NCBI GenBank assembly: GCA_965371665.1
Contig: CBDUZI010000001.1
Location: forward strand, 9,411 to 73,410
From: an uncultured bacterium
GTDB lineage: Bacteria; Oederibacteriota; JAAXVQ01; JAUVAV01
Direction: 5' to 3'
Length of the DNA: 64,000 nucleotides
Below, in pieces: positions 146-64,000 of this stretch (position 1 is its first letter; each line of letters starts with the position of its first letter). The notes under the pieces are model-generated. The model was not told where the DNA came from. It made no database searches and saw only the letters and a program-made list of their open reading frames with translations. The translations under genes were made by a program, and so were the position numbers.

Positions 146-263
146 GTCATTCCGAGCGAAGCGAGGAATCTCTAAAACCCCTGCTTTTCAAAGAGATTCC
201 TCGGTCGCTTCGCTTCCTCGGAATGACAAAAAAATTAAAATGGCCTTTCCGCAACAGAAACTA
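146..263. repeat. intergenic hairpin element, type B, copy 1
   Basis: Imperfect long inverted repeat GTCATTCCGAG..CGAGGAATCTCT (146-173) / AGAGATTCCTCG..CTCGGAATGAC (192-227), followed by the box CTTTCCGCAACAGAAACTA (245-263). The box contains the stop codon of the SBP gene. The same architecture recurs at 14443-14577. Confidence 0.7.
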
Positions 264-22298: not shown

Positions 22299-22434
22299 AA
22301 CCATTTTACCTCTCATTTTTTTATTTTTGTTTCTGTAGGCATGGAGATAAATGTCGTCAAATTACAAAACTGCACAATTATTATAGCCCCCCTTTCGCTG
22401 GAATTTTCCTAACCCGGCCAAACCAAAACCAAAT

Positions 22435-22551
22435 TTAGCCGCAGATACACGCCGATATACGCAGATTACAAATCAATTATCCTCTCAAAAAAATCACTAT
22501 TTCCCTGCCTCAAGCGGCTAATTACGCTCATCTGCGTTCATCGGCGGTTAA
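22435..22551. repeat. intergenic repeat element, type A, full MITE-like unit
   Basis: Left end TTAGCCGCAGATACACGCCGAT (22435-22456) is inverted relative to the right end ATCTGCGTTCATCGGCGGTTAA (22530-22551). The internal part AAAAAAATCACTATTTCCCTGCCTCAAGCGGCTAATTACGCTC matches the copies at 7043 and 18592. Confidence 0.7.
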
Positions 22552-24344: not shown

Positions 24345-24435
24345 CCTTTCATACTTAATTCGCCGTTTACCTTAGGTTTGCATTCTTGCAGCCTGTAAAG
24401 AAGTTTATATTTATTCCGCTCCAGATAATTTTTTT

Positions 24436-25662: not shown

Positions 25663-28600
25663 TTACGCGGCCATGGCGGTGCTGCGGAATATCCTCCGCC
25701 TGTATTTCTCAAACGCATCGCGGTCGATGCTCACGGGCAGCAAATTCAGGATGTCCCGGAATGCGCCCAAAGCTCCGCTGTTTCCGGGCTGCAGGAGCAG
25801 CCCAGGTACCAGGATGTCTTTATGCTTCACGCCCCGCGGGGTCGAATCCCATGCAGCCAGGCTCTGCGCCTCGAGGCTGGCCATGCTTCTGCACAGTTCG
25901 CTGAAAGTGGCCACAGATCGCTCGTGGTCTTTGATTAACGCCCGGGCCTCGGCAATGTGCCCCCTGGTTCGCAAGCGCCTGATCTCGACCCGCTGGGCTT
26001 TGAGCATGCGGATCATGGCTTTTACAAAACGCTGCGTGTTCTGTGTGCTTGGATTCAGGCTGAAACGCAGGTAAGCCTGGCCGAGTGCGCTTTCCGGATT
26101 ACGCAGCAGATCCGCTAGCGTTGAGTTCACTCCTACCTGGTTGAGCACTACATCAATATAACCCATGGGATTCTGACTCCTCATATTTTTGAGCACAGGC
26201 TGCGCAATCCCTAGGGGCAGGATGAACGCGGCTAGGCGCATGGCCTGCAGGCCTAGCGTGCTCCGGACAGGCAAAGCCGGGATGGCCTCCTCGACCTGGC
26301 CGTCAAATACTCTGGCCTTCACACCCACAGGCAGTTTGTCTGCAGCCACCATAGCCGGCGTGATCTTGGTATTGAGTGGGCTGGAGAGCTTAAAAACCAT
26401 TTGGGCGGACATGACAATCTTAACGTCGCCAACCTCAAACTCATGGGTGCTGACCTGGCCGGTAGCGACCGCGCGTATAAACCGCTTTTTGATTAATTCT
26501 TCTCCGATATCCCAAATCTTGTCGTTCTGATTTTTAAGTCTGGCCAGCCGCACAGACTCTGCCCGTTCGGCCTCGGCCAGCAAGACAGGTCCGATTTCGG
26601 AATCCAAGGGAACCAAAGTGCCGGCAGCTACAGGAGTTCCGTCTGCGGCTGACCAAGCAGCAGTCAGGAGCTTATTCAGGAACTGCAGCCGCTTGCTCAC
26701 GCCTGTGTCCTGGCAGGATTTCTTCTTTAAATCATAGAGGGCCTGCTGCACCCGATTCTGGAGGTTCTTATAGGAAGCAGGCATAGTCATCAGGTAGACT
26801 TTTTGGGCCTTGACGTCCTCGTCCGGTTGTGCTAGCTCACGTTCAGGATCGCCAACAGGCAATTCCGCCTGGCTCTGAATCAGGAGCGAGAGCAGGTCAT
26901 TGAAGACCATGGCCTGGAGCTCGGACGCCAAGCTGCGGCTCTCCCTGGCCAGATCGCGTAATCTTGCAGCCTGACCGCCTTCCTCTACGCCCTCTACGGA
27001 TTCCATTACCTTCAACAAGGTTTCCAGGTTCGGTTCAGCGCCCTCCTGCAAAGCGGTCTGCAATTGTTCGCGTATCTGAGTTAAGCTGAGATCTTGTTGT
27101 GCTTCTGTAAGGTTTTGGGCGGCGGTCAGCCAAATTTCTGCCAAGCGAATAATTGAATGCACACCTAAGGCAACAGGTTTTCCTGTCTGTTTTTTGATCC
27201 AGGTTAATGCTGGTGTCCCAATTTTGAGCGAATCCGATCCCTGTTCAGGTTGCTCCTCGTCCAGTTCCCTGGTCCCAACCCCGAAGCCCATGGCCATGGC
27301 CAGCGGATCCAGCCGGGTTTTGGCGTAATACCGCTCAGCCTGGTAGCCCGCGATTACTGCAAAGAGGAAAGCATTGATGCGGTAAACCAAACGGTCCAGG
27401 CGCGAACGCAGGCTGTTGTCCAGTTCTGGCACCTGCTGAGAAAGAGCCTGGAGCAGGCGGTCTGGCACATAAATCGTAGGCCGTTGCGCGCCCTTACTGT
27501 CCAGGTCTCCGTACTCAAGATACGCGCCCAAAGCCTGGCCATGCACCAGCCGGCTAAACCCGTTCGCCTGGAGAGCGGAGAGTGGTCTAAACAGCACCTG
27601 CTGAATCTTGAACTTACGCGCTGCGGCTGCATCTGGAATCAACAGCAGGCGTTTCATCCGGTTGAGCAACGGATTGTTATCATCTACGACCACAGGCTCG
27701 GCCGTACGAGGGTTGAGGAAGATCAAAGTCGCAGCCTGCAGGAGGGCCAGCACTGGCATTAAAAGTCCTGTTAGGGCGCCGAGTGGTGCTCTCAAATTCA
27801 GGTTCCCGGCCTGGCTGCTGTCATTAAAGAATAGGGCTGAAGTCAAGCCGTAGCGCAAAAGCCTTAAGGGCCAGAACCGGATGCCGCGATAAGGCAGATT
27901 CATGTCCTCCCCGGCCGGCAGGATCTGGTGCAGACGCTGCAATTTGCGGACTAATGTTGAGGGGCCGGCCGTATCCCCTGTAGGATGAGCCTCTCGCCTG
28001 CCAGTAAGCACGGCATCCTGCTGTTTTTCAGACAGGCGAGACGCCTGTTCTAATAATAACTGAATAGTTAACTTGTGGATCGAGCACACCTGCGACCAGT
28101 AGGCAAGCAGCTCTGCAGCCATGCGAGTGCGCGGTTCCAGGCCTTTTTTCCGGCGTGCCTGGTGATCGCAGCGGTGGGCATCCTCATGCTCGAAGATCGA
28201 GCGCTGTTCTGCAGGTGTGAGATAGGAGAGCCGCACCAAATTGGCTATGATCTTGCCGCTGCCAGGATCGTAGAAAGTGATTTTGTTCAGGTCAGTGGCA
28301 GAAAAGCCGGCGCGCTGCTCTAGGGGCAAGACCGCCATGTCCACAACATTGGGATTTTTCACGAATTGCGCGATGACTGTCTGCTGAACATCGCCCCGAG
28401 GCCGGCCATCTGCAGCCCTGCGGCCACTCCACCAGATGCGGGCAGATTGCAACAGGAAGAAGCCGGCTATGGCCGGCATCAAGACTACACCCAGCCCTCC
28501 CAGGATGAAGCCGGCCGCACCCAGGCCCAGGCCTAAGCCAGTGAGCCCGACCAAGGACGCATAGCCGAATACCAGGGTTGCGTAAGCGCCCATGGCGCCA

Positions 28601-31600
28601 AGGGCTGCCAGGGCAGCGGCTGCCAAGCTGCCAATGCTCGAGACCAGTTGGACGCCTTCTCTGGGCAGGACCTGCCGCCAATGTTCCAGATATTCCAAAA
28701 TTTCTTCGGTCGGCGGCAAGCCTCGCAGGAAATCAGCCGTATCCGCAAATCCGAAATACTGCGCGTAGAAATTTAAATCCTTCTGATCGGTTGGAGATAA
28801 TTCATCATACGTGTATTCGTTGATCGCCGGCAGGTCTAGCTCAGGCAGATGATTCGTCGAATAGAGATACACTCCAGCATAAGAATCAACCAGATCGTAC
28901 AATTGTCCATAAGTCTGAAGCTCGTTCACATTGCCGATGTCTTCGATCCGGTAGCCGGCTTTGGCTAATATCCGCCGGAAGTCTCCCTCGGAAAACTCGT
29001 AACAGAAATATCCTCCGCCCCGGTATTGGTGCAGTTCCTGATTAAGGACATTGACCCAATTTCTCCAGTCACGGGCATCCAGGGTCTGCTGTCCGAGAAA
29101 CTCAGGCAGGGTCTGGGTTCCCGGGAAGGGCTGGGTAAGCAGCTGATCACCATAGGAGGCGAGAAAGAAAGCTAACTGGTCAAAGCGTAAATTTAAAGTA
29201 TTGACGAAGTTCTCAAAATCCCGATAGCCCATATTCTGCGCGATTTGATTGTATTCTTCCAGGGTGTAATCGCGGCCCAAAACGTGGTTTAAAGCACCTG
29301 CCAGACGCCCGACATTATCCAAAGTGATGGTTTCCTTGCCTCCCTGCTCCACATAAACCCGCTGACCGTCCTCACCTCTAAGATTCAAGGCGTAGAGCAG
29401 GTTTTCAAACAGGGCGTTAGTCTTACCGGACAAGGGATGGTAATAACCTGTTTTCCCAAAGTGGAAGGGACTGTCTCCCAGGAACTGGCTGAGCTGCGGC
29501 GGATAAACTTGCTGGTTTTTATATGTGGCCAGGTCCCAGATATAGTTCCAACTGCGGCTGGTTACATGGATGCCGCTCCAGATCACAAAGGCCGCGAAAA
29601 CGCTTAATTTTGAGCTGCGTGATACCCGATACAGGAAATTATTGAATCTTTTGGTCTTGGCCAGCGCCACCATCAGTGATAGAAAAAACACCGTACCAAG
29701 CTGTAATCCCCAGGTGTTGTACCACATCCGGCTGAAGTTGGCGATAATCTGGAGTTGTTTGGGTACTTCTTGGCTACCGGACAAATCCCGCAAAAATTCA
29801 CGGATCAGCGCCTGTTGCAGAGCCCGGTCCTCTGCCTGTACCGGGTAATTTTGGAGAGCCCGGGCATCGGGGTTGACAGAATCCAGCAGGGTAGACCGGG
29901 TCGGCTTTTCCCATACCGTCATTCCGCCCCGCAGGAAATCCAGGCCTGGCAGGACGCCAATCTGCTTCCAACCCGTGGCCACCAGCAGCCGGTTATATCC
30001 CGCATTTCCACTGATGACACGGTCTAAGCCGTATTGCTCATTATTTATTAAAATATCAATCAAGGGTGTCATGGAATTCATGCCGCGCTCAAAACCCAGG
30101 GTCGCAGCATCGTATCTGACTTCTGAAGGCGTTCCTTTGAAGCGCTGGTTGTACTGAATGGTATCCGCCATACGGCCCAGGGAAACGCTTGGAATGCTTG
30201 TGATAATCGGGAACTCCGCTCCTACGACCAGATAGCGGGTGTTCACCGTTCCCAGGCCTCTTAAACTGTTCGTATCTAAAAGCATGTTCAGATCCGGATA
30301 TCCAGACGGATGCAGGGGAACGATCTCTTGGCCGAGTTGCAGTTCTCCTGGTCCTGGAAATGCCTCTGGCACTCCTTCGGCGCCAGCCTCGATTTTAATA
30401 ATCCGTCTTCTCATATCTTGAGTCTGGGCGCCGATCACCAGGTTTGGCGTCGACCCTGTCTCCTGCAGAGCTATGTTTGCCGGTATTTCACCTTCCCATT
30501 CATAAACCGCTTCCAATCTTTCGCTCAAGGTTTCACCTTGAGCGGTGATTCCTTCCAAGTCAGACGAAACAATAGTTTTGACTACAAATTCATAATACTC
30601 ATCGGTTTCTACATCTTTTAAAAGCAGTTTTCTGACCTCCGGGGTATCCAGGTTGTAAACCATCACTCCTGGGGCATAAGCCGGGGTAAGCCGAACCCAG
30701 GTCTCTGGCTCCCCAGCGCGGTTCGCCATATCCCGAGACACCTCGATAATGATGTTGGAGTTGGCGCTCGGCGTGCGGCTGTGTACTCGGGCAATCAAAA
30801 ATTTAGGCAATTCCCGCAAGCGAAGTCTCCGGCTGGCAAATCCATATTCCTCGATTTGAGTTGTTGTAATTAGTTCCCCACCCTCGACCCGGGTCGATGT
30901 AAACCAATCCTCGGGATTTATTGGAATATTAACTTTCGGGCGAGGTAGTTGTCCGGGTTTGATTTTTTCCATAACCAAGGCTGGAACCCGGATAATGTAA
31001 AAGTCAAACCAGGCTCGGGCAGACCGGTTTTCAGTCTCGCTGAACTGATCGACTACGCCTAATGAAACTTCGAAGGATTGGTTTCCAGATAAACCCCATT
31101 CCCGGAGCAGATCTGCCAGATTAATCCTCTCCTGGTTACTCTGGCTGTTGAATGCAGCATAAACGTATCCGTCTGGCAGGGACGGATGATGAATGGCGAC
31201 ATAGTACGTGCGGGTTATGTCACTGATCTCCATATTCAGCCAGACATTTTCGCTGTCCAGATCCACGCGGATAGGCTCGGGCATGCGCACGCTGGCCCGA
31301 TTGGCGCCGGAAGTATTCGCGCCGCGAACTAGCAGGCCTCCCTCTTCATTCCAGTCTACCCGCGCATCCTGGAGGTGTGCCTCCTGCAGCTTCACAGAGG
31401 TATAATAGTCATCGATTATCTTGTGCGGTTCAATATCGCTTTTGTCGGCGTAAACATGCATGACCCGGTCTGCGCCCGCGGGATCGGACAAAGCCGCAGT
31501 GTTCTCCTGCCCTATCTCTCCAAAGCCAGCAGCTTCGACTTCAGGCGATTGCGAAACTTGCCCGGCCTCGAACGAGCCGAATCCTCCGCTGATATCATGC

Positions 31601-34600
31601 TCCGTGAATACCGCGCGGCCGATTTGGCGTACGTAATCATCGCCAGCTTCAGCCGGAAAATTCCCGAGCATCAAGAAACAGTTCAAGTTGTATTCATGCA
31701 GCATATTTTTGATTCTTTCGATCTGCGGGCCGACCGGTTGGTGCATGTCTTGCACCTGGATGGAGATACCATCGACCTGCGCCAGGGTAAGAGGTCTAAA
31801 CAGGATATTATGGAAGGCATCTGCATAGTCGAGCTGAAGAATGAGCAGATGTTTGTCACCGTCGATTTCTTTGAGGAAAGGAATCATTCGGTCATACCAT
31901 TTAATCAAGTCTTGTCTGAGATTGATTCTCTGCCAGTCCGTCTCGGGGGTGTTTCTCAACAGGACATCGGGTCTGTCGGACAGACTATAAACAATATTAG
32001 GATAACTATGCAGCCTTTCCACTATCGTCCGGACGTAATTTTTATTCTCTTTATAACTTTTTGCTATTTCGTCTGGGTAAATCGTATGTAACAACGCTCG
32101 ATTGAGGCTTATAATATCTTCTTCTGCCAGGATCTTTTGGGAAGCTGCCGCTTCTTTCGCTTTTGTTAATAATTGCTCAACTGCTGGAGATAGTTTGAGC
32201 TTGTCAGCATCCACTTTGGTATATAAATCAGGCATTTTCAGGACGGCATTGAATGCTTCAACCGCCTGTTTTTCTGTAAGGGTTGGCAGTTCCTCGATAC
32301 CCATGTCAAGTTCTGCAAGCAAAATAATATCGGCTTTACTTTCCCCTTTTAGTATGTACTTTAATCCCTCGACATCTAAATCGCCTTCGCGAAACACCGA
32401 AGAGGACTCAATGTCTCCCCCAAAATCCTGGTAATTTTCAAACAAGCTGACCACAACCATGATGTTTGCATCCTGGGCTAGCTGTATAAAATTTTCTAAC
32501 TTGTCCAAGTAGCTGATGTTGACATTGGGGCCGCCGAATTCAGTGTAGGGAATCTGCATAATGACACTGTTGGCATTCTTATCTCGCAGGCCTTGCACGA
32601 GTTGGCCCAGGGATTCCGGTGTAGCATTTTCCCACCAGCCCGGCTGGGAAGTGTCTAGATTAAATCCCCAAAGCTTGACCACGTTGCCCTGGTCATCGGT
32701 AATTTGTCCGTAGCCCATGGCCGGAGCTCCGCGCACCTGGTAAGCACCTCGTCCGCCCATTTCGATGGTTTGCAAGGACGGCACTTCATAGTCGAAGATC
32801 GCCTGCAGCTGTCCGGTCCCGGTAACCTGCAACCAGTAGTTACCTTCACGATCCTCCACCTCCCTGTAGTCCACGCCCACGTATAGTCCCTGACGGTTAC
32901 TCGGCATGGAAAATTCACTTCGCCAGGAGCCGATGTCGATGCCTGCCTCAGGATAAACAAAACCTAATCGAGACCCCCAATCCATGCTATTACCCTTAGA
33001 GTCAAGCATGGCTTGGATTTCAGGCGGACACTGGTCCGGCCGCAACGTCTCAATGCCCCGAATGTGCGCACCCATGCCGGCTACAGGGGAAACACCTCCC
33101 GTAGGCAACGTTTTGCGCGAAGACTCCGGGTCCCTTTCTATTTGGAGCGGTGATTCCTGCCATTGGCCGGTTATACCCATATCAAAGCGTATGGCCCCTC
33201 CCATCTTTGCCAGTTTCTCCGGAGATAACACGATGTAATAAGTACTGGGAGCAGGGATATCCCAAGTAGCTAAGGGTTTGGGAACACCCAACATAGATTT
33301 CCTGGACATTGCTTGTCCGCGGGTTTCTATGCGCGATATGGCCAGCCTGTCCGCTTCCTCGGTCGCCAGTATTTTAGCCTCGGCTATTTTCTCCTCTGTT
33401 TCCGCACCCTGCATGAATCTTTCCAGGGCGGTTTCATAATCGGCTCGCCAGGCGCGCATTTCTACATCGTTCCCAAACTGTTCCTCACTAGGATCTAGTT
33501 TAAAATACAATTGCGCATTGGGGGAAAGTTGATCCACCTGGATGGCAATAATATTGTAGCCCTCTGGCAGAACCATCTTCCGGCTGACATAGCCCCGGCT
33601 ATGCCGCGGGCTGGTTCCGATCAGCGTCAAGCCCTCGGAGTCGGCGCTGAATTTTAAACCGTATGGCTCCCACTCCCAAACCCGCACTCCCTTTACAGAT
33701 ACGTCGTACCGGTCCCCGGCTAGGGGAACACTCAAGCGGCCGCTGTCCAGATTATCGGGTACGCCAGGATCATACGGCAGGATTTCGGGAGCCGGCCGCT
33801 CGGTGTAGTCTACATTCAAACCCTGCTGGTAGGCGCGCATGATATTCATGGCAATACTATTATCTAAAGTTTCATCCTCGCCTATTCGGTTCCGGAAAAA
33901 GAGAGTTTGCAGATAGCTAGCTGCCCGCAACCGATCCCAGCCTTCAATATTAGTCCACTCCGTGGCCAGATCCGGGTTCAGGCTGAGGAAGGGATCGAAT
34001 CCGGCAAGGAGCGCTTCATCGGATAACGCCGGGTTTTTCTTCCAAAAGTTGATTCCCATCCTTTCTTCGTGTCTAATAAGATCGGTAGATGCCAGGAAAT
34101 AATTCAGGGCAGACGCGGGAACAACGGAGAGATTCGGGAATCCGGGAATAGTTATCTTTCTCCAGCGCAAAGCTTCCCGGGTTTTTTCGGCGTGGGCATC
34201 CACCATGCCGAAAAAGTTTTCTATGGTAAGCTGATTAGGCTCATAGGCCACGAATAATTCCGAATGCTGGATCGGCAGAGGCCTATGTATGCCTTTTAAG
34301 GGCTGAAATCGATCGACCATCCATTCCAGACTACGGAGGAAGATGTTCGAGCCTTCTGTAGCAATATTTTCATATTCTCCGGACTCAAAACGCCCCAGCC
34401 CGACCTTCACGTCCGCCAGGGGACTCTGGCCGCCGGCCACAGGCTCAGGCCGAATAAAATGGGCTTCTGGTCCATACCACAATTGCCGGGCATGGATCAT
34501 ACCGTCCAAAACTACATGCGCATCCTCCAGCGAATTAATTCCGTACTCTTTCAGCCGGCCTTCATCGATCAATCGTTGCAAAACCAGCTCGAAATTTTCT

Positions 34601-37600
34601 TCGTAAATCACGCCTTGGGACCACATAGCCTCGACATCAAATATCAGCTCTAAAACGTCCTTCAGACCTTCAAAGCCGTAATCCCTGAGTATTCCGTTGT
34701 GATGGAGGTAGATCACCAGCAGTAAGTCTTTGGCTCGGCCGCGCGCCGCATAAAAGTTCTGCTGATTATCCAGCAAAGCACACGCCTCGTTAATGTCTAT
34801 ATCGTAGTTTTCCAGGACACCACCGGCTTCCAGGTCATTTAGTACCTCCTCGAAGGGCGTGTCCTGTAAAACGTCCCAAAGGACATCGATATTGTCGTTG
34901 ACAAATTCCATCTCATGGAAAGGCAAAAGCCTGACGTCTTGCCGTTCCAGCAAATAGGCCGGATGCCGCGTCCAGACATAGCGATAAAGAATCTCGGGAG
35001 TCCAGTACTTAGAGAAGAAATACTTGGGCCAAGGCAGCAGTGTCTCCCCGTTCATGCCTGAGTCTTCTCTTAAAAGCCGCTCGAACTCCGCATAGGTAAG
35101 CGGATCATAACCATTCTGTTCAACGAGATGATTCAATTCAAGCAAGATGGCCCGCATGGCCACCTTCTGGTCAGAGCGCTCCACACCCCTTCCGATATTC
35201 GTTCTTTTCAGTTCCGGCATGAACGTGGATTTCAATTCATGCTGCAGGCGGTCGCCAGGATAAAAATTGAAAATCTGCCAGAGGTACTGCGTGACTCTCG
35301 ATTCCAGTTCCCGGGCAGAATACCTGGCCAAAATATCGTTCCGGTACGGCTCCCAAAGGCCGTGAGCCTGCAGAAGTCTCATTTTCTCCTGGGGTGAAAT
35401 CGTACCGGCCTGAAACCGCCGCAGGGCGATGATGTCCCTGACGTCGAACCGGCCTTCCTTTTGCAGGGCGTTCAATTGCACGAGCAATCTGTCCGCTTCG
35501 TCGGGAAAAGCCCATTGCTCGGTTAGCAGGTTATCGAAACCGGCCGGGGAAAAACCCATGAGGCTTAAAAAATCTTCCAGTTCAATGCCATTTTTCGGAA
35601 GAGACCGCTCAACGGCTGGAATACCGCAAAAGTCGAAGACCCGCGATTGTTCGGTGAACCCGGTTACTGTCGGCCCGACCAGCGGATTGCCAGAAGCGCT
35701 AATGGCAAACTCAAATCCACCTGCTTCGGCCACCATGAATTCCCGGTATTCCTGTTCAAAATTATCCGGCCGAAAGACCGCTTCATCCGGAACAATGTAG
35801 TTCCAGTAATATCGTTCATCCCAGCCATCGGCTTCAAAGGCTGCCCAGCGAAGACGGGTTTTTCTCTCCAACTCGGCCACGATCCATTGCTCATCCTGGA
35901 TTACGTTCTGCACGTTTTTGGCATTCACCTGGGAAGGCTTGAGGAAGCGGGCAATTTCATTCTGGATTCTGAGGTACCAGTTATACCTGGCCAGTTCGGA
36001 AACATTTGGATTATTCGGATCATAGCCGTAATTAATATCCCGCACCGTTCGGATGAAAAAGGTAAAACTGATGCCCATGTCCTGGCAGAAAGCCCTGATG
36101 CTCTGGTAGTCGCTTAAGTCCAGATGCTCCATTTTCCACACTTCAGTCTGCTCCGATTCCAGCCGGACATCTTCCAACGTTCCGCAACTATCTTCCGGGC
36201 TGGGATGGGTAGTTAAGCTAATTCTTGTTTCCACGACATCCTCGATGGGTATTTCCGCCTTTTCAATTACCATCAGGAGGTCCACCTGGCTGTAGCCGTG
36301 GATAAACCACGGTCTGACTTTTACAGTAACCTCATCCTTGGTAGTGGTTTTTACCGTTAGGATGATGTCAAGGTAGCCTTGCCTGCCCATATAATTACCA
36401 GTAGAATTGTAGCGTAAAAACCGGGTGGCCTGGATTTGTTCTCCGGATACGATCCAGCTGATTCCTGCTGCGGGTTGGTCAGCCAGGGATTCAAAGGCGT
36501 AATGATTCTCGACGCCTTGCTGTGTGGCGGTGAACCGGGTCGGGTCGGTGGCATCCTGCGCCAGCATCACCACGTCGCCGGTGATCTCTGCCGTCGCGCT
36601 GGTTAAAGGCATAACCATGGTCGGAAAAGGCTCGGCCCGAACCTGGTTCGCTGACCGGTAAAGCACCTCTTTGGTGCTTTGAGAAAGTAGATGGGAATCG
36701 ATGTAAGCAGGAATTTCACCCTCTTGCTGCGTTACCGGAGTAAATATGGTTTTTAAAGCTCCGGGAAAACCGCCTGTCTGTCGCTCCTCAGCTTTACGGG
36801 CGGCGGCTTGTGGTTTGCCCACTTCGCTGGTGGTTGAGCCAGAAGATGCGAAATCCGTTGCAGGCTTTCTGGAATCCGGACCGGTATAATAGATCAGGTA
36901 ATCCAGACCCTGTTGCAGGCTGGGTATGCGCAGCGGTCCGATTCGCATTTCTGGCGTCAGCATGGCAAGTCCTTCCGAATATAAATAACCTGATAGGCGG
37001 GGGGATTGTCCTAGCCAGGTAAGTACACTAAGGATAACCGGCGTGAAAAACCACATCAGTCTCCACGCTGCCTTAGAGCGCCAGCTTGCTTCCTCAGGCA
37101 GCTTCTGATTTCGCGCCTTTTCTTTGCTCGCTCTCCAGAAATCCGGACGTTCTGGCAAGATAGCCCGCAGCTTCTGCTTGTCCCGGAAAATCCAGAACAA
37201 TCCAGCAATCATCGAAACAAGCACTCCCGCGCTGACCGCAAACAGAAGAGGAGCGATAAAGTTGCCCATAAGAAAAGCAATAATGCAGAAAACCAGGGTC
37301 AGGCTGAAAATAATTTTCCCAAAAACACGCGCAGTGGATTTGCCCATGACACCGGTTTTTTCTGCAGCCACTAAGCCGAGCGCTGCCAGAATACTGATCA
37401 TTAGTGCAGCCAGGATATCTAAAAATGCAAAATGGATTGCTCCGAAAAGGACAACCGTAAGGACGAATCCGAATAAGAAGAAATAGCTGAATTTAAACAG
37501 GCCCTTGGTAATATCCCCGGCCACCTTCCAGGTGGCCCAGTTCAAAGGCATCTGGCGTAAATGCTGCACATACTGCCTCAGATTCCTGATGGAGCCGCGG

Positions 37601-40600
37601 ATCTCTCCCACCAGTTTTTCCAGCACCAGCAACAGCAGGAACAAGGCGATGACGGGCACGATCAGCGACAAGTTGAAAATTATTGATAGGATGATCATTA
37701 CCACGGCAGCCATGGCGACGACTTTCCAGCGGCTGCGGAGAAGTTGCTTTAATCCGAAGTAATTGAAATATTTGAATAAGACTGCGAGAAGAATAATTGT
37801 CGGCACTGTATAGACTATACTCATGGGATCGGCAGATAAAACCGTTATCACATTCTGGTAGGTGGAGATAAAAGCGGTAATTATCCAGTCGATAATATTT
37901 AGAATAATTTCAACTATTGGAGCAGGAACATATGGGACCACAATATTTCTCCAGACCCATATGCTAATTGGGACCGGCAGCATGAGTACGATCGCCCGGA
38001 TGATGGCCACGAAGAGGTCCTTGGTTAGCAAGACCGGGATTTTAAGCCGTTCCGGCATCTTTTGGACAACTCGCTGGTTAAATACCCAGGATATTCCAGC
38101 TCCCACCAGAGTGGTTTCCAGCATCCGAAGCAAGGCTTCACTAAATGGAATAGCGGTAATGATGCCCAGGCCAGGGACCATGAACAAAACCGCAACCTGG
38201 TACATCAAGGTCGGAATCACGCCATAGGCCATCTGGGACAGGGATTTCAAGCTACTGTGGCGGAAAACCCGTTCGATTAAGACTTCCAGGATATAGGCGC
38301 TCAAGGGGGCCAGGATGATAATCAAATTAACGGTGAGGATGGTTTGCCAGACATTATACTCCACGCCGACTTTGGCTAGATTGGTGATATTTTGACCCAA
38401 AAAATCAGAAATACCCGTGAAGAAGGCGAATACCAAAACATTCGCAAAAAACATTCCACTTATAGGCATCTTGAACCGGATAAAGTAATCTGCACCGTAC
38501 TTCCCGGATACTACAATGGCGGCCTTGACGGGTATCAAGATTTGTTGCTTAACACATTGCCACAGAGGCTGGTAATACCTTTCCCAAAGCTCAATCAGCC
38601 GATCTTTGAGCTTTATCAAAATATCCTTCACCCGACGCAATATATCCAAAATCTTCTTCTTCACCCACTTAAGCCCGTCGCTAATTTTCGTAATTGCCGT
38701 TTTCACAAAGCGGATCATTCGCTGGACGAACTCGATTCGCAGGATCAGAAACAGGAGATTTTTGACGAACCTGATGGCAGCTTTGACGCGATTAACGATT
38801 TTGATGACGATATTATCTTTAATCCAGATAAGAAAATTCACAATAATGGGACGGATGATCCGGACAAAGGGACTGACGATCTCCTCGTAAATCCTTTTCG
38901 GCAGGGTAATTGGCAGGACGAGGGCCAGCTGTTTGACCACGTGTCCGATCTCGTGAACGGTTATACGTACAAAGCCATGGGGATCTAATCCGATATCGGC
39001 CAGGATCCGGCCGATGGGGTTGACCTTCCAGACCCACTGTGCCCATCTCTGGTACCAGGGCAGCTCTCTTTGCAAGGTCTCCGCAACTTGCAGCATCATG
39101 TTGCGCATGACCCGGCTCGGCGTGCCCTGTCTGGATTGGAGGGCGCGGTTGAGCAAGGCCGTCTCGGTCAGGGCGCGTTTGCCTGCCTCGGTCTCGAAAA
39201 AGGCATAATAGTTTTCGAATTCCTGGGCAATTTTTAAGATATTGGGCGGAATGAGGTCTTTAAGTTCGTTTCTGGAGGGTTCACTGACTGCCATTTCCAC
39301 CGGTACTTCAACCGCCTGCTTTAATCCCAGGTACCGACCAAGCACACCTAAGACTATCAAGAGTCCCAGGCCCATGATGCTTCCAGCGAGGATGGCTGCT
39401 CCACCCATGAGCATGGTAACCATCCCGCCAGCCAGCAGAGCCAAGCCAGTAATACCCGCAATAATCATCCGCGTACTTACACGAATGGGGGTATCCACCT
39501 GGCCCTCCCCAGGCGCCATGGTTTCCGGTGGAGAGGTTTCCCTGGGCGGAACCTTATCCTGCGCGAATGGATACAGGGCCTCCAGGAAATCCCCCATCAT
39601 GGCCTCACGTGCCTGGTCAGAGGTAATGGCGTCGATAAACTTCAGCAGATCCGTAGTATATTTATTAGCCTGCATGGCTTCGGAATCCGATTCCACCACG
39701 TCCGTGCCCAAAAAGGTGATTCTTCCACCGAGCTCCTGATTAATCTTGATGGCTATTTTTTTGATTTCCAATTTTCCCCGCGACGTTTGGGCCAATTCCC
39801 GGATTTCATCGGCGATTTTGACCAAATCAATCGTGGTGCCTTTTTCGAGATAGAAACGCCGCTTGAAAAGCTGGAATAGTTGTTCCGCCGTGATCTCGAC
39901 CGCTTTGCCCGCGAAAAACGTCCGGTTTAAATGCCAGGCAAACAACTTCATGCCGTTCATGCGCATTTTAGCGACATCTTCCCTCATGATGGCTTCATAA
40001 CCGCCCAGAAAGAAGAAGCGTAGGCCTTCGGCCAAATGCACACGGTAAATATCCGGGATCGAGCGCAAAGCCATGGGCGGAGCTCCTGCGAAATTGGCCA
40101 GCGGTCCCGGCCGTCCGGTTCCGAAAGTATGGGACATTATGTGGATGGGACCCTGCCCCTCGATGACTCCCTGGTATTTGGCCAGATCCTCCTCCTCGAC
40201 CCAGCCGGTATGAAGTATCGAGCCGTACAACAGTCCCATGATGTATTTGGCATAGGCTTCACCCGCATATTTATCCCCGGCAAACATAGGACTCGGGTGA
40301 TCACCACCGGTAAAATGAATTTTCGGAATCACGCCAGGCAAGGCTTCTTCCACCGCCCGCTTCAGTTCTGCTTCCAGTTCATTCAAGCGCTCCTCTGCAG
40401 TCAGCCGGGCTTCCACCTCAGGACGTAGCTGAGCACGAAGTTCTCCCCGTTTTCTTTCGATTATGCGCACCATGGCGGGGTAATAAATGTCGGTAAATTT
40501 GTAGCTTCCCAGCTTGCCAAAGGTGAAAAATATCCATTTCTCTATTGGCACCCGCGTAAAGTCCACCGGTGGAGTGACCTCGGCCATGTCCAGCAGGTGG

Positions 40601-43600
40601 TGAGTAACCGCGCCGGTCCGGCCTTGGAAATTAAACCAGGGATTATAATCGGCGATTGCCCGGGCGTATTCCGGCTGAAGGAAAATGAGTTTGTTCAGGT
40701 AAAGGTAAATCAACTGGGAGAGTCCCCAGGTGCCTAATTCCTCTTTGGTCCCGGCCTTCACCTGGGTGGCCTGCAAATCCACTCTTTCAATCACGTGGTG
40801 ATAAGGCGCGCCGATATGGGGGGTTCCGATCACCAAGGAATTGAACAGGCGGGAAACATGTCCCACCACGGCGCCCATCGGACTCTTATCGCCTTGACTG
40901 GTGAAGAGCATGTTAATCATTTCCGCATCCGAACCGGGTTTCCAACTCTCGGTCAGGTTCCGGGCAAAATTGTAAAGCCCTCCCATCTCATCCCAGGTCT
41001 GGATTAAGCTGACATTATCATGTTCCAAGGCGGCTGAAGTGACTACGCCGAATTCATTTCGGCATTCAGGACATAGACTATGCAGGCGAATCACTCCAGG
41101 ATAACGCCAATGTCCGTAGTTCACCAGCAAGCGCAGCTCCACATCCGGCCCCGCCGCATTGGCCAGTGGGATAATGGTATTTTGCATGTATTCGGACACG
41201 CCTCCGCTCTTTCCCAGTCTGCCCATTTCCCCACCAACATCTATCAACTGCCCGTCCGGATTATCTTCGAGTCTCATCCCAGGAATAACCTTTGCCTCAT
41301 CATCCACAAAACTGGAAAGGGTAGCCACAACCCCGGTACCCAGTTTGGAGGCTAATCCGGATTTCACTTCAGCCTCGGATGTCATAAGGCCTTTAACCGT
41401 ACCGACCATATCCGACAATTCAAACCCATTCGCATCGATTCGCCCCAGTTCGGCTACCGAGTTACAAACTGTTTGCAAATAAGTTAGACACTTTAAGGCA
41501 TAAGTCCGATTAGTGTGATCGGTTAAATTACTGATGTATCCTTGGCTGGCCAATTCATAATATAATCCTTGCACGCGCTGGTCGGTAAAAGCGATGGGCA
41601 CGCCGGCTTCAACATGCGCTTTGAGGGCTTGATAAATCACTTCAATATCATCTCCCAGTTGCTGCATCTGAGAACGCATATTCTTAGCCACATAAGTATC
41701 CCTAACCCTTAACCGCTCAGCAACCAAGGTAATGTCATGTTGAGCTTCGGGTATTCTCTCTGAAACGCGCAACAAATAAATCAAGTCCTCCATGCTTTCC
41801 GGGTCAGAGAGATTTAGGTTCTGCAGAAGCTCCCACACGGCCTGAAGTTTCTGAATTTTCTCAGGGGTAAAGGTCTGCCCGTCCCGAACTTTTTTAAAGA
41901 TTTCATGCAATTTGGCGATTTCCGACGGCTGCATCCATTTTTCCAGCAAAATGTCATCGCGGCCACGGGATTTAATCTGATCAACCAGAGCCCTTAAGCC
42001 TTCGTCTTCCTCACGGTAACCCGGCCCCATGGCATCCAAAGGAAGCCTGCTGGCCTGTCTTCTCTCCCGGCTGATGTCCTGGCGCACCTCCTCGGCCACC
42101 AGATCCGCGCGTATGTCACCCTTCCACTGCTGGATTTCATATAGAATTTTTAACAATTCGATCTGGCTCGGATCCTGCCGCAAGGTTTGCAGGGCAGCCA
42201 GTTTTTGCCCTATCCGATCGGGAAGAATCCTGCCCTGGACGATCAAATTGTCGGATAAGCCGGCCGCCTCGGAAGCCAAACCGTACTCTGGCATATGGAT
42301 TAAAATCTGATCAATGCTTCTTACTGCGCGGGGCAGGTCATTACGCTGATATATCCCAATGCCCGGACCCATAGTGGTGCTGACAGTCAGGACAATTTTT
42401 TCTCCGGGTTTCTTTCCCAAGCGCCTCCGGACTTGGGTAATGGCCTCTCTGAGTTCTTCTTCCGTGATCTCTTGGTTTAAGATGGCCTGGTCCTGGATCA
42501 TCGTGTCTATATCATGCCACATCACATTAAGCTCGTGCGCCATCTGCCCCATAGTACCGTAGAAGCGGTGCCGGCCCTGGCGATGGATTTGTTCGTCCTC
42601 TGCCCGGAATTCGTGCTGGTCGCCAATTTTGGCTCTCTGCCCTAAATAATCGAGATCACCTTGATCGCGGGCCAGGACAGTTTCCTGATAAGCGACGGTA
42701 GCAAGGATAAGGGCCAAACCGACAGCGGCAACTAACATTAAAGTTGGCGCAATAATGCTGAAGACGACTATAGCCGGCAACATAACCAGCGCGCAGGCAA
42801 CGGTAGTTCCGCTCTTACCCGGTATGCGAGCCGTTAAATAAAACCCGACTAGAGCAATAAAAAAAACCGCAAGAACGACCATCAAAGCCGGGGTAGCAGT
42901 CATGGCTGCCAGGGCAATGCCGGCCAAACCCATCACACCCAAGGCAACGCCGAATACGAAAAATGTTTTTCCCAGGAAGCCTAAATTCCCGAAGCTTCTG
43001 GCAGCCTGATAATGCTCGACGGCTACACTGCTCCTGCGGCTTTTTTCAATCATGTTTTCATACTTACGCAGGTTGTAATTAAACTCAGAGTAAAAATACT
43101 GCTCCCGCAGCATTTCGATGGTACGGCTCGCCTCTTCAGCGCACAGACGGGCCTGTTCTACCGCCTCGGGAGGCTGCCGACCGGCCGCAATCGCGACTTC
43201 AGCTTGTTCCATGGCCTGTTGCGCCTCCGCTTCCTGCTGTTTCGCAATCACTATTTGTTCCTGTAAAAAATCATTATAACTTTGGGCATCGTAACCCAAA
43301 ACCGGTTGATCATTGGCGTTGGTGATCAGATGTTCCATAAAATCAGCCTGAGTCAAAATGTTGGTTTTATTTCTTTGAGTAGGCTGTAAATCAAAAAGAA
43401 TCGTCCGTATCTTAGTGAAAAAACCATAGTCCGGACTGGATTTAAGCTCTGCCTGGTAATAATCCGTTATGTGTACATTGCCCTCGGCATCGATCATGAC
43501 TCCTGAAAAATCTTCGGTCCCATGATAATTCAAGCCGTGGATATCGAAGACATTTATTGCGGTCTGGAACTTTTTGGCCAGGCCTATTATCCGGTTAAAA

Positions 43601-46600
43601 TATGCTTTTTTCAGCCGGTCATGCTCAACATAGACCTCTCCCAGCCGATCATAGGCTGTCCGAATCTGTTGGCCTAATTCAAACAGATGCTGCTCCAGGG
43701 ATATCGATGGATTCAAGGATGCTGCCTGCATGGTTGTTACTAATGCCCGTGCCTCAAGGTCGACTACGTCCCGGGCCTGGGTTATAAGGCCGGGTAATTC
43801 CCGCCGGCGCTGCAGATTATCCTTTGTTTGTACGTTTTCTTGCCGTAAAGCTTCCAGTTCTTGAATCAGCCGATCCTGCTTGTGTCGTGCATGTTGCAAC
43901 TGCTGATACTGATGGTTAAGGGAATCTTTACACTCAAGCAGTCCGTCTTTTTGCGCCTCCAGTTCTGCAATCTTTTGTTTTACCGTCTGAAGTTCTCCGA
44001 GGTCTGGAGCTAAATAATCTTCTGCGCTCATACCAAAGGGTTCTTTCATGATCAGGAATCCAACATCTGATACCTTAACGTCTTGGGAACTTCGCGCAGG
44101 GAAGATGCGGCCGGTGGGAATACGCGCCTTGGCGCTCCCGGCGTAATATTTCAACTGAGCCAGGCCGGGCGTGCGGGAGCGTGTGAAATAGCGCTGCAGT
44201 TTTCTGGCAAGTCTGGAACTCAGCGGGCGGGCGCTGACGACGATGCGGTCGATGCTGCCGGTATGTGCATCCACGCCCAGAGCATAATTTTCATGGATTT
44301 CCGTAATGTAATAAGTCCGGGTTTTTCCGTCGTCGCCGGTCATCACGAAGGGAGTGTCATGCGCCAGGCAGGCGTTTAAAAGCTCCCTTCCGCTGGAGAC
44401 TTCAGGAAATCCGCTTTCAGGCGAGGCCTTGACCTGGACGACTTGCTCAATGACAGGAGCCAGTTTTCGTTGAAGGATTTGTAAAGAAGTTATGGTTTCC
44501 AACTCGAGATTTGCTAAGTGCTGTTGATATACGGGATTTTCGGCCATGCTGGCCAGCAAACGTTCCAGCACGGCGCCTTCGTAACCAGCCGATCGCACCC
44601 AGCTGAGTTCTGCGAATTGAATATCCAACAAGATTTTACTCAAAACGGATAAACGCGTCTCGGTGCTTAACATTTTGCAAATCATGTCGAGTTTATATTG
44701 CTGTTCGCTATCCCTGGGGCTGGGACTGGATAAAAGCTCAGCGAGCTTTGCTTGCCGGTTTTCGGTATTATCCTCTTTAATGCCTTTAATATATTCAACC
44801 ATCTCTTGGTACGCCTGCTGCCTGGCTTGAGTTTGGCTGTCCTTGGCTCCTGTCATTTGGCGGGTTTTCTCCTTAATGGCCTTGCGCTCGCCATTTTTGA
44901 AAATATAGAAAAGCAGCGAACCTGCTTTGATTAAAACCAGGATTCCGGCCAGGGCAATGACTACACCGGCTATGATGGCTAAAGGCAGGGAAAAGACTTG
45001 CAACAGCATTACCAGGGAAACGGCCAGGCCGGCCGTGGTCCCGATCAGGATCGATTTCATCGGCAGCGAGAGCTTGGTCAGAGGATAAAAAGAATTGAAT
45101 TCAAAGGTGGCATTCTTCCAGATGCCAGGATGTTTTTGATTTGCATAGGTGAGAAACGCGTCATTATCAATAATCCCGGCTTTATCGAAACCGGATAAGC
45201 CGTGGATTAAAAATTCACTTAAACTCTGCAGCTTGAGAGGGTGGTTACTAATATGAATTCTTCCCACCAGAGTACGGGTATCCTCCACTGCCTGATCATA
45301 AAACCGGTTAATTCGTGCCGATAACTCAGCCTGGACCTCGGCAGGAGTTTTTCCCTCAGCCTTCCAGGTTTCAATTTCGGCAAAATAGAGTTCGCTCACA
45401 TGATAGGGGTTGAAACCGAGCATAAGCGGACAAGTTTGGCCTCGATTTTCTTTTTGCCATTCGGTTCTTAAGCTTTTCACCTTATCGATTACGGCTGTCA
45501 GCCGTTGTTCCCCCCGGCTAGCAAGAATATGGCCGGTGGCATCATCGCGCAAATTGTACTTCCAGGCTTCTTCCTTCGCTATCACCATTTCAATAACCAG
45601 GTTGATATGATTTCGTGCTGCCAAAGTCACTAAATTCATTTCCGCCGACCTGCGATCGAGAAGATTATGTTTTGCCATATATAAGCCGATGTATTTTTCC
45701 CACTCATAGGGATGAAAAACAACATCCACCGGTTCAGGATGTCTCTCCTCCAGGATCGGCGCTATATCAGCCGTTTTATCTCCAAAGGCCACATGATAGG
45801 CGGCTACCTTCAGTCTTAAGCATTTAGCCGCTTTAATCTGTTCGCGGGTGGTATAAAGTTCATACTTTTTGCTGCCCATAAATAATGTTATATAAACCGA
45901 ATAAGCAATCATGGTGAGCAGGATTATGAGATTGGACAGCCAGCGTATTTTCATGATTTTCGAAATCCCAGGTATAAATTCGGGCAAATTTATTATCGTC
46001 GAAGCTATGGCGGCATTTCGAACAAATTTCTCGGGTGTGTACATCCGGTCTTCAGGCTTTTTCTCGACCGAGATTTCGGCCTCGACACTGCGCGTTTCGC
46101 GAATTTCCGCGCCTGCCTCGGGATATTTTAATTCATCGAAAAATGCCAGCACCTCTTGGGAAAATCCCTCTACGTTCTGGGGACGGTATAATCTGGCTTT
46201 TATTTCTGGGCTGTCCAGGGATATATAGCCGAGTTTTTCAGCAGGATAATCCGCAGCCTGAATCTCAGTCCGAATTTCCAGGGCCTCGACATCTTCGCCC
46301 AAACGAATCTCGAAATTGTGACCAGCGGCTTGCAATTGATCCTGGAGGGCATAAATATAATGCATCTCTTCGCGAGGCGCCATTTCTTCGGAAAGCATAA
46401 TCGCTACCACGGGTACAACGGCTATACGTTTACGCCCGGCTTCGGCTATTATTTCCTTAATTTCCCGAACCAGGGTCGCGATCTGCTCTTCCCGATTGGC
46501 TTCCGTCTGGGATGAAGGCAGCAATATCTCTGCCTCGGGATTAAAGGCGCCGGTCGCTTTCGTGAGCCTTACCCCCCCCATACCGAAGCCTTGAGAAGAT

Positions 46601-49600
46601 AGGCGCACGGCCGGCAGGATGACTTCATCGCCGCTTAAAGCGGCAAGGTCTTGGGGAGAAATCAAACCTGCGCTGGCGCCTAATTTTTGGGGATCCAAAT
46701 GAGAAGCCAGAACTATACCAGCAGCATAGCCTTTATCGGCAAGCCATTGATTTGCTTTGGCGATAATGAGTTCACCGTTGGGTTGACTTAAAGCTTCACT
46801 ATTAATCATAAATCTTTTGGTCCCGGACCATTGGCTGATATCCGACCGGGTTTCTTTGTCTCCTTGCAAGGCAAAATAGATTTTTATTCCATAAAGCAGG
46901 ATCGGTGGCACCAGTATAGCCAGTAAGGGATTTATCACTGAAATGCTCAGGATACCTAAGCCGCTTAAAGTTTCGGCCAGGTTAGCAACCGCATCTAAAC
47001 CTAAAAAGCGAGTGTACACCCAGAAGCCCAGCCCCATTCCGGCAATGATTAATCCGCCCCCCGCGGCTTTGCCTGCCATTCCAATTTTACCCTCTAATTT
47101 AAAAAGGCGGAGTATTTCGGCGAGTTTTTTCGCTCGCACGCCAAACAATTCAATAAATAGAATGGCGCCGAGCCACCACAACAAGTGCACCAGTTCAAAT
47201 CCCATGATCGTCTCTATCAAGCCAGACCAAAATACGACGTAGGCTGCAAAGGCACTACTGCCTAAAAAGCTTGCTATTCCCAGAAATTTATTCCTGGTTA
47301 TTCCATATACAATAAAATAACCCATAACCAATGCAGTCAATGCAACAGCACTTCCCAACATGATTTGAGTTCCAAAGAAAAGCAATCCCAACCCAAGGGC
47401 AATGGCTCCCAGGGATGCTAGAACCTTGTTCTCCAGGGCGCTCCGGATTTTCGAGGATTTAAAGGCAGGCGTATCCTTGCCTTGCAAGAGGGAAATGACG
47501 GTCTGTCCCAGATTTTTACCTAGAGCGTCGATTTGTTCCGAACGCAATGGGGTTGAGCTCTTCTGGATAATTAGTTCCAAAAGTTTATTTAAAGGCGTAT
47601 TTTTTCGGCCTGGATTTATGCCTTTGGCCGTGCCTAACGTCAAAGTGCTGCCTTCGGAAAATTCGGCGGGTTGATAGGGATTCGGACATAGATTCAAATT
47701 CCCTTGCCCAGCCTGACCTGTCAAAACAAAATGTTTCTCGACTAACTGCTTTATGGCTCCGTAGTCAGAATGACGCAAGACGGTTTCCAGAAGGCCATTT
47801 TTAAGTTTACTTATAACTTCATCTGGTTCCTGTCTCGGCCAAAGATAAGCCGCAGCACCTATGGCGAAAAGCAGAGCCCGGGGGGACTTCGCTGCAGCCA
47901 GCGAAACTCGCAAAGCTTGAAGTCTTTTCTCTTGGTCTGCGTCTAAAGTTTGGGCACCAGCCAGATCAATAATCTCCTGGTCCAGCCTATGTATCTCTTC
48001 ACGCTCTTTTTCCTCTGCCTGGGAACCCAATGTTTCTGCCAAAGTCTGAAGCATATGTTGGTTTTTTGCTTGAATACTCTGAGTATCGCGTTGTACCGGT
48101 TTAGCTTTTTCAGTTTTTTTAGCCGTCATGAGTACGTTTAAATTCGCTTCGAATATTTCCGGCTTGCTTCTGTCCAGTTTTAAGGCCACGTTTAAAAGGT
48201 TTTCCGCTTCCTCGCCCTTGAATCCAGCAGCTTGGATTTTCTGACGCAACTGCTCTTCAAACTTATCAATCTTTACCTCTTTTGGCTTTTCATCTTCATA
48301 CAGCTCTTCCTGCTTCTTCAATTCTTTTTCGGCCCAGGCCTTGGCCTTTTCCTCGCTGAGAACCGGGCCGATCAGGGTTTTATATTCCTCGCGAAGATCC
48401 GGATAATCCTTGCTAAGAATCATGCCGGCAAAAATTTCCAGGAAGCTGAACCATTTCCAGCGATTCGGCTTATCGAAGAGTGTGCCCGGGTATTGGGTGA
48501 CATCATGACCCGTGACATGGAAGAGTCTTTGCTTAATCGCGGCCAATAAAAATTCTCCCGGCTCCCGTCCGCCCACTCTGGTCTCGGCCTCGGATTCAAT
48601 CCAGGGAATATCCTTGCCCATGACCTTATGACCCGACATCAGAGCCAGGGTAATGAGTTCGGTTTCGAATTCCATCTTGACGCTGCTGGCAAGTTCAAGC
48701 GCTTTCTTGACAACCTCCGGCCGAAAAGCCTTAAATCCGGCCTGCGTATCCGGCACTCCTCCCAGCGGGACAATCGCCCGGACCATGAGATTAAATCCCA
48801 GGCTCAGGATATGCCGCGCAAGCGGCTTGGCAAAAACCACGGATTCCGGGCCTACGCGCGACCCGTAAACCAGTCCGACATCCGCATTCTCAGGATTGGT
48901 CAGCGGTTCTGTGAGCTTGCCAAAAAGCCCGGCATTGGTGGAAACATCGGCATCTATATAGCCGGCTATATCCACCTCGTCTTCTTCCACCATTATTTTA
49001 TAGGCCTCGTACAAGGCTCCGCCTTTTTTTTCCTGCCTGGCGAATTTCAAGCCTTTGCGGTCGAAATAATACTCGACCCTGATCTGGTCTGCCCGGTGTT
49101 CAAAATCGCTTTCGATCACATTCTGCGCCAGCCGGGCTGAAGCGTCATCGTCTGTGGTAAAAAGAATCCTGGGGCCTAAATGTCCGGCCTTTTTATCAGG
49201 ATCACTTGAATAAGCTACTCCCTCTTCTACAATAGTAATCGTCATCACATCCAGCTTTTCCACACCCTCTTTTTCAGCCTTATCCAGCTTTTCTTTAGCC
49301 TCTTCGGCGTCTTTCTTGGCATCTTCCACCTTTTTTTCAAGGTTTGGGTCCTGCTTAGGAACTAACAGGTTAAGCTTTTTTAATATAGCCGGCAGACTGA
49401 ATATCAACCCGCCCAAGCCGGCCAGCCCGATACCTGTCCAGGAACCCAATATCAAGGCCGCTGGAAAGAAAAAAGTCATGACCACTCCGGCGATGATTAG
49501 AAGAATGCCGATAATCCCGGCAGCAAGCACAGTGTTTTCATCCCAGGCATTCAAGGCTTTACGCTTTTTGCTCAAGTCTTCGTGGTTTTTACGCGCCTCT

Positions 49601-64000: not shown

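Follow-up and report, generated by a model that had tools for sequence, protein, structure and literature searches.

The window analyzed here is a stretch of 64,000 nucleotides from an uncultured bacterium (GenBank assembly GCA_965371665.1, contig CBDUZI010000001.1, positions 9,411 to 73,410). It contains a giant open reading frame (ORF) on the minus strand (25663..64000), with 12,729 codons when counted from the TTG listed as its start. Two barrels related to glycoside hydrolase family 5 (GH5), here named domain 1 (D1) and domain 2 (D2), are encoded in this ORF. Our results are best explained by a giant membrane protein in which an active GH5-like D1 is accompanied by D2, a long-maintained pseudo-glycosidase that later received a foreign insert in one lineage, and we consider this explanation likely.

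The giant reading frame and its two barrels

When the final 150 bases of the window were translated, the frame proved stop-free through base 64000, giving at least 12,778 codons. The TTG at 63852 was therefore rejected as the start codon, and is used here only to number residues. Since the ORF exits the right end of the window, the N-terminus lies outside it and the protein is N-terminally incomplete. A Kyte-Doolittle scan of the visible protein gave 67 windows above threshold, corresponding to about 45 or more hydrophobic segments resembling transmembrane (TM) helices. The product is a polytopic membrane protein of more than 12,778 residues, and its only close relatives are found in metagenome-assembled genomes (MAGs) of candidate division FCPU426. 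The only Pfam matches in the whole protein were Cellulase (PF00150, residues 170-407), SecY, SecA_DEAD and P-loop_SecA; dockerin and TSP3 domains gave no Pfam match in it.

D1 (residues 147-436; 62545..63414, minus strand) is a GH5-like (beta/alpha)8 barrel according to Pfam, AlphaFold2, Foldseek and profile matches. Against PF00150, whose gathering score is 23.5, it scored 32.7 bits, and the match covers profile positions 12-269 of 272. The AlphaFold2 model, built from a shallow alignment, is an eight-stranded barrel with a predicted local distance difference test score (pLDDT) of 84.4 and a predicted TM-score of 0.87. Its best matches in the PDB by Foldseek were GH5 beta-mannosidases and mannanases (7bob, 1rh9, 1qnp and GH5_18 structures; E about 1e-12, TM-score about 0.7), and other families of clan GH-A rank after the GH5 matches. 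A profile of D1 and three database homologues matched Op5Man5 (7bob) with an E value of 1.8e-13, and the D1-family profile aligned end-to-end with ScGH5_18, placing NE under GNE and E(I/V/T)G under QEVG. NCBIfam gave no match for D1 or D2. All relatives found for D1 are stand-alone proteins of about 500 residues with 26-34% identity, and a search of Joint Genome Institute (JGI) metagenomes with the D1 alignment matched only distant stand-alone enzymes.

The acid/base motif Asn275-Glu276 (63025..63030, minus strand) stands just after beta4 in the model. Glu367 (62752..62754, minus strand), with which beta7 (LIFEEM) ends, holds the nucleophile position and aligns with the glutamate of the EIG, EVG and ETG motifs of homologues. 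Both motifs are invariant among the retrieved D1 homologues and are also present in three full-length metagenome ORFs. Besides the glutamate pair, the GH5 hallmark residues are an arginine in beta2, a histidine in beta3, a histidine and a tyrosine in beta6 and a tryptophan in beta8; Arg197, His335, Tyr339 and Trp404 are present in D1. A preliminary description of this DNA had already read an Asn-Glu pair and a nucleophile in D1 from the motifs VTNEIDLH (residues 273-280; 63013-63036) and IFEEMG (residues 364-369; 62746-62763). Both motifs are in place, align with the motifs of solved GH5 enzymes and fall at the ends of the predicted strands beta4 and beta7. Because of the fold, the profile matches and the conserved NE and E motifs, D1 is probably an active retaining GH5-like enzyme. 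Judged from sequence and model, its retaining clan GH-A active site appears to be complete, and a working beta-glycanase or beta-glycosidase is the most likely identity of D1. The solved relatives nearest to it are enzymes acting on beta-mannosides, which does not by itself assign its specificity.

D2 is divided by an insert into an N-terminal part, from beta1 to beta3 (residues 10394-10483; 32404..32673, minus strand), which is supported by Pfam, profile-profile comparison and AlphaFold2, and a C-terminal part, from alpha3 to alpha8 (residues 10602-10789; 31486..32049, minus strand). Its score against PF00150 was 18.5 bits, below the gathering score of 23.5, and covered profile positions 2-84 alone. 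The AlphaFold2 model has eight strands in canonical order. For the larger share of the first 90 residues, and for other blocks of the barrel, its pLDDT values are 85-97, and all of its top 50 Foldseek matches in the PDB are GH5 structures. Both domains are GH5-like barrels of clan GH-A, as the preliminary description had proposed, and both lie in one uninterrupted minus-strand frame. Across the 12,778 visible codons, a family HMM detected two barrels and no more.

The two barrels are paralogous. Self-comparison by BLAST aligned residues 202-244 with 10436-10478 (35% identity, E 6.5e-6), and the motif FGGPNV occurs in both domains, as had been noticed earlier. When the alignments of the D2 orthologues and of the D1 family were compared with hhalign, the probability was 98.8% and the E value 9e-17 over 159 columns; overall identity between D1 and D2 is only about 22%. 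The same alignment pairs SLSDRPD of D2 with GVTNEID of D1, which agrees with the alignment formerly made by eye. The likeness, which had been described for the first half of D2, is far beyond chance, and it extends to the whole barrel and to the domain of about 140 residues that follows. Three of these domains, which we call X, stand in tandem after D1 (residues 453-886; 61195..62496, minus strand; self-comparison and HMM), and two paralogous copies follow D2 (residues 10803-10945 and 10965-11110; 30523..31446, minus strand). The HMM found these five copies in the visible giant protein. The X domain had no Pfam or PDB match.

A hydrophobic module is found on both sides of the D1 module (63553-64000 and 60457-60900, minus strand; residues -49 to 100 and 985-1132). 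Its core of about 40 residues is nearly identical in the two copies, with the pattern ...AQYAQAAEKGNK.IGYIFWNVIFCEFLAH.WDL...ITTGLVLSIPVL.LFVSVPLGIPALLITLSLIAPLWISL. This repeat suggests the duplication of a tandem unit, and a further unit may lie upstream of the window.

Catalytic residues and helical insert of domain 2

In D2, Asp10626-Arg10627 (31972..31977, minus strand) occupies the position of the Asn-Glu pair at the end of beta4, and Asn10731 (31660..31662, minus strand) the position of the nucleophile at the end of beta7. The first assignment was obtained with MAFFT, with hhalign and with two solved GH5 cellulases (YEICNEPN over YSLTDRPD), and the second with MAFFT and the modelled strand end. 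In the AlphaFold2 model, beta4 ends at IVYSLSD, before RPD, and beta7 ends at FLMLGN, before the phenylalanine. A different register, in which HMMER set N-T-P of D2 under N-E-P of 8gf3, was rejected, since hhalign, the two solved GH5 enzymes, MAFFT and the strand end favor D-R-P; the rejected register likewise places no glutamate at the acid/base position. All seven positions compared differ between the two domains: Arg197 in beta2 is replaced by Ile10431, Asn275 by Asp10626, the acid/base Glu276 by Arg10627, His335 and Tyr339 in beta6 by Gln10699 and Met10703, the nucleophile Glu367 by Asn10731, and Trp404 in beta8 by Gly10759. D2 had been called apparently dead on the basis of the motifs LSDRPD (residues 10624-10629; 31966-31983) and LMLGNFP (residues 10727-10733; 31654-31674). 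Both motifs are where they were reported, and both glutamates are missing under every alignment tried and at the modelled strand ends.

A word-indexed protein search with D2 returned no match, neither to relatives nor to the gene of the giant protein itself, and the D2 alignment found no match in JGI metagenomes. Relatives surfaced in an exhaustive HMMER search of 1.84 billion representative sequences, which gave 72 matches. The best three (P0004, P0005 and P0006, from loci L004 to L006) have 52, 44 and 43% identity to D2 and are fragments of giant ORFs on FCPU426 MAG contigs. They carry TDQPD, TDRPD and GDRPD, respectively, at the acid/base position and GSFP, ADFP and ADYP at the nucleophile position. 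These three orthologues lack both catalytic glutamates and the asparagine, histidine and tryptophan; the arginine is kept in two and is a lysine in one. The catalytic loss is thus common to the four sequences of the D2 clade, whose pairwise identity ranges from 37 to 60%. D2 is as conserved as its surroundings, with 52% identity to P0004 and 48-49% in the flanks. P0005 (L005, DAOWGI010000097.1) carries the NCBI name "phage tail tape measure protein, partial"; for a fragment of a long giant ORF rich in helices, this is almost certainly a wrong annotation.

Two more distant sequences, P0016 and P0043, have kept six of the seven hallmarks (the arginine, NEP, the histidine, WGEFG and the tryptophan); the tyrosine is absent. 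Both exceed the PF00150 threshold and have the same downstream architecture as the D2 module. P0016 is a complete stand-alone gene of 1,701 residues, and P0043 is a sequence of 547 residues. The P0016 gene (L012, JGI Ga0654421_0007274, 1270-6375) is flanked by genes with Carot_N and DUF3531 domains, which we take to be families typical of cyanobacteria. These neighbors hint that the active sister clade of D2 lives in a different phylum.

Because the orthologues share the loss, the distant relatives keep six of seven hallmarks and D2 is conserved like its flanks, D2 seems to be an old, maintained pseudo-enzyme rather than a product of recent decay. Ancient loss followed by maintenance is the simplest reading, which would make D2 a long-maintained pseudo-glycosidase. 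That one barrel is intact and the other dead is well supported by sequence, profiles and fold, and the orthologues and the sister clade lend it further strength. Its role is most probably non-hydrolytic, either in binding of glycans or other ligands or in structure.

The large helical insertion noted earlier in D2 is real, as seen in the orthologue alignments and in the AlphaFold2 model. It has 118 residues (10484-10601; 32050..32403, minus strand), lies in the beta3-alpha3 loop and is absent from the three orthologues. The alignments of all three skip from residue 10483 to about 10592-10602, and the insert is therefore lineage-specific. At third codon positions its GC content (GC3) is 0.364, whereas the gene averages 0.562 (standard deviation 0.065, windows of equal size), and the lowest GC3 anywhere in the 12,729 codons falls within it. 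Since it stands between beta3 and alpha3, and the loops that lead from a strand to the following helix make up the substrate face in TIM-barrel enzymes, it would lie on the former active-site face. Composition, alignments and model together indicate that the insert is apparently a compositionally foreign domain, inserted late on the former catalytic face.

More than 60 further HMMER matches cover the insert segment only, often as tandem copies, in proteins with PilZ, RDD or DUF4330 domains. The family (P0007-P0075) has about 120 residues and the motifs GDLD, TE..V.AFN.IL.M.DF and LNRALL..IYP.E. Scored with an HMM of 49 strong full-length matches plus itself, the insert reached 135.7 bits, and no second copy was found in the window. 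The family had no Pfam or NCBIfam match. Another stretch of the giant gene (about 47490-48300, minus strand; residues about 5185-5455) also has a GC3 of 0.364, equal to that of the insert, and may be another foreign insertion. It is itself without a Pfam match and adjoins a weak, sub-threshold ORF6C match (residues about 5431-5472).

Embedded SecY-SecA region and neighboring genes

The giant protein has a full-length SecY-like channel domain (PF00344; residues 2062-2373 by Pfam and about 2009-2382 by BLAST; 56734..57669, minus strand). Its score was 138 bits, with profile positions 1-304 of 306 covered, and it aligns at 27% identity with a canonical SecY of 442 residues (residues 19-418). All relatives retrieved for this domain are stand-alone SecY proteins. 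It directly precedes a SecA-like ATPase region (SecA_DEAD, residues 2475-2715, and P-loop_SecA, residues 3022-3241; 54130..56430, minus strand), in which the Walker A motif of SecA_DEAD is intact (ATGQGKT, residues 2615-2621). Together they span 54130-57855 on the minus strand (residues about 2009-3241). In the giant proteins of Omnitrophota described by West-Roberts et al. 2023 (bioRxiv 10.1101/2023.11.21.568195), SecYEG are encoded by separate, non-syntenic genes, and how the SecA-like parts reach the membrane was left as a question. A 2026 survey of Omnitrophota does not mention SecY, and a SecY domain inside giant proteins is unreported in both studies. An engineered SecY-SecA fusion is reported to be functional (PMC5562318).

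Directly downstream of the giant gene are two genes for ABC permeases of CUT1 type, resembling MalF/G, UgpA/E and GlcT/U (23496..25338, minus strand). The downstream permease is present in identical form in ENA assemblies ERZ23498918 and ERZ25748485 and in SRA run SRR21487743. The adjacent sugar importer genes noted in the preliminary description are thus CUT1-type permeases, and a carbohydrate-type substrate-binding protein (SBP_bac_1; 261..1571, minus strand) is encoded about 22 kb further on. A gene for an OmpA-like protein is also found downstream of the permeases, as is one for a DUF6259/NPCBM_assoc protein of 1,738 residues (1568-6784, minus strand). The latter has weak but significant matches to the X domain (full-sequence E 1e-10), and because of these matches it appears to share an accessory domain with the giant protein. 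No gene for an ABC ATPase, PilZ protein or type II secretion system was found in the window, which covers 25 kb on the downstream side of the giant gene, where small ORFs were checked for PilZ, and nothing on its upstream side; Pfam scans of the window detected no PilZ, type II secretion, peptidase, glycosyltransferase or methyltransferase domain. An ORF-poor, AT-rich stretch without Rfam matches (22340-23180) separates the second permease gene from the gene that follows. The GC content of positions 22001-24000 is 0.379, against about 0.45-0.55 in most of the window, and is comparable only to that of 14001-16000 (0.381).

These features may be combined in a self-contained machine for export and harvest, a proposal that we regard as speculative and rather improbable. 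The SecY channel and the SecA-like motor of the giant protein would thread its extracytoplasmic loops across the membrane in cis. The loops would display D1 as a working GH5-type glycanase together with D2, an ancient pseudo-GH5 that might have been re-purposed as a sensor of glycans or other ligands and rewired in this lineage by its insert, whose domain family is found elsewhere in a PilZ (cyclic di-GMP-binding) protein. Cleavage products would feed the adjacent CUT1 importer. If so, it would be the first fusion of SecY and SecA known from nature and would extend the idea of the giant predatory protein to FCPU426.

Alternative explanations and comparison with known systems

The explanation favored here, an active D1 beside a long-maintained pseudo-glycosidase D2, supposes two paralogous modules in one giant protein, each a GH5-like barrel followed by X domains of about 140 residues. 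D2 would have lost its catalytic machinery early and then been kept, and the insert would have been gained later, in this lineage only. From the folds, the homology, the residue states, the indel and the composition observed, we infer the activity of D1, the inactivity of D2 and any binding role. Several points weigh against this explanation. The beta3 histidine is absent from D1 (FTFFP) and from its closest homologues (LFD). The mean pLDDT of the D2 model is 69.7, and the insert, with values of 31-46, is effectively unmodelled. The D2 clade consists of four known sequences only. Asp10626, Asp10629 and Asp10678 are conserved in all four, near the C-termini of strands, and P0005 and P0006 have an aspartate at the nucleophile position, which would be compatible with non-canonical chemistry. 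The parity of the hydrophobic segments counted between D1 and D2 is ambiguous as to whether both face one side of the membrane, and an outward orientation of either barrel would be presumptive. Finally, the two barrels belong to one protein at the level of the ORF, and the polypeptide may be cleaved after synthesis.

D2 might be neither catalytic nor glycan-binding, serving instead as a spacer or protein-interaction scaffold in a loop of 2,870 residues, with the insert providing the real function. We consider this possible, though unlikely. The insert, which occupies a beta-alpha loop of what was once the substrate face, could occlude that face, the residues that usually contact sugar (the tryptophan of beta8, the histidine of beta6 and the arginine of beta2) have also been lost, and the insert family is present in many unrelated architectures. 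However, the three orthologues without the insert conserve the D2 barrel equally well, and the D2 module keeps the X domains of its active paralogue and of the intact relative P0016.

The preliminary description had proposed that D2 grasps the polymer cut by D1, the two barrels cooperating within one molecule. The paralogy of the two modules, their shared X domains and the adjacent sugar importer genes are in line with this proposal, as is the analogy with the giants of Omnitrophota, which were proposed to bind and digest the envelopes of prey. We nevertheless find it doubtful. Some 10,000 residues, with about 45 or more hydrophobic segments, lie between the barrels, the sugar-contacting hallmarks of D2 are lost and the insert lies on its binding face, all of which weakens such cooperation; with only about 22% identity between them, the ligand preferences of D1 and D2 need not match.

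A still enzymatic D2, working with non-canonical residues or by substrate-assisted or lyase-like chemistry, might draw, for example, on Asp10626 and Asp10629 (D242 and D245 of the D2 alignment; D-x-P-D), which are invariant in the clade, and on another nucleophile; P0005 and P0006 have an aspartate at the nucleophile position, and alternate mechanisms in GH5 have been raised by Aspeborg et al. (PMC3526467). We judge this quite improbable, since six or seven of the seven hallmark positions are altered in each sequence of the clade, rather than one or two, the nucleophile position varies (N, S, D and D) in a way unexpected for a catalytic residue, and the acid/base site of D2 is occupied by an arginine. 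Lastly, that the ORF is an assembly chimera and the two barrels do not belong to one functional protein is very hard to believe, for although the sequence is metagenome-derived and the giant gene has no match in protein databases, 38 kb are without a stop codon, composition is near-uniform at the 2-kb scale, three independent FCPU426 MAG contigs are collinear with residues 7522-12301 as continuous open frames, and the downstream permease is identical in independent metagenome assemblies.

An active D1 with a maintained pseudo-glycosidase D2 in the same frame, and with a sister clade of D2 that still has its catalytic residues, would offer a natural experiment on the re-purposing of GH5. The insert adds a case of a compositionally foreign domain placed in frame in a beta-alpha loop of a TIM barrel. 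Giant membrane proteins with SecA, so far known mainly from Omnitrophota and relatives in the PVC group, are extended to the almost unstudied FCPU426. The embedded SecY channel bears on how such giant proteins cross the membrane, and among the loose ends the SecY-SecA pair is the most interesting. Both giant proteins of the "predatory" kind and GH5 modules without catalysis were known before, and the pair of a live and a dead barrel is a real but incremental variation. Current understanding is not overturned; testable cases are added to it.

Klotho and beta-Klotho are eukaryotic membrane proteins with two adjacent pseudo-glycosidase domains of GH1 type, each lacking one glutamate. Their domains belong to GH1 and are adjacent, and the likeness to the present protein is one of analogy only, not of homology at the family level. 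In structure and profile, both barrels are matched best by GH5 beta-mannosidases and mannanases (Op5Man5, 7BOB; GH5_18, 7LR7 and 7LR8), which share the NE and nucleophile glutamate motifs with D1. These enzymes differ in that identity is only about 13-21%, the D1 family (NYYPS...W.R.W) lacks the beta3 histidine and D2 lacks the catalytic residues.

Non-catalytic GH5 modules were described by Aspeborg et al. 2012 (PMC3526467), namely GH5_30, a Xanthomonas offshoot of GH5_1 and lipoproteins related to GH5_8, and these authors noted that such groups might "possess alternate mechanisms". Like these modules, D2 is a barrel with incomplete catalytic machinery inside a larger multi-domain protein. 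They are described as long-branch sequences; D2 fits this description, with a loss conserved within its clade. Unlike them, D2 is found in a giant membrane protein, with an intact paralogue in the same ORF and a foreign domain in its beta3-alpha3 loop.

The closest parallel at the level of the whole protein is with the large and giant proteins of Omnitrophota, which have many TM segments, a divergent SecA DEAD domain and carbohydrate-active domains; genes for PilZ proteins, solute-binding proteins and ABC transporters lie downstream, and type II secretion genes belong to the neighborhood (West-Roberts et al. 2023). The present protein resembles those of the Archaeovorin type in its length of more than 10,000 residues, its many TM segments, its glycoside-hydrolase-like domains and its divergent DEAD domain of SecA. 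Downstream of its gene are genes of a binding-protein-dependent sugar transporter, with no PilZ or type II secretion gene in the 25 kb that follow. It is set apart from the two classes of West-Roberts et al. (Archaeovorin-type and Dockerin-type) by their descriptions, since Pfam detects neither of the domain sets that define them. Its only close relatives are in FCPU426, a division that these authors do not mention, which led us to reject an origin in Omnitrophota, and, unlike the Omnitrophota giants, it embeds a full-length SecY before its SecA part.

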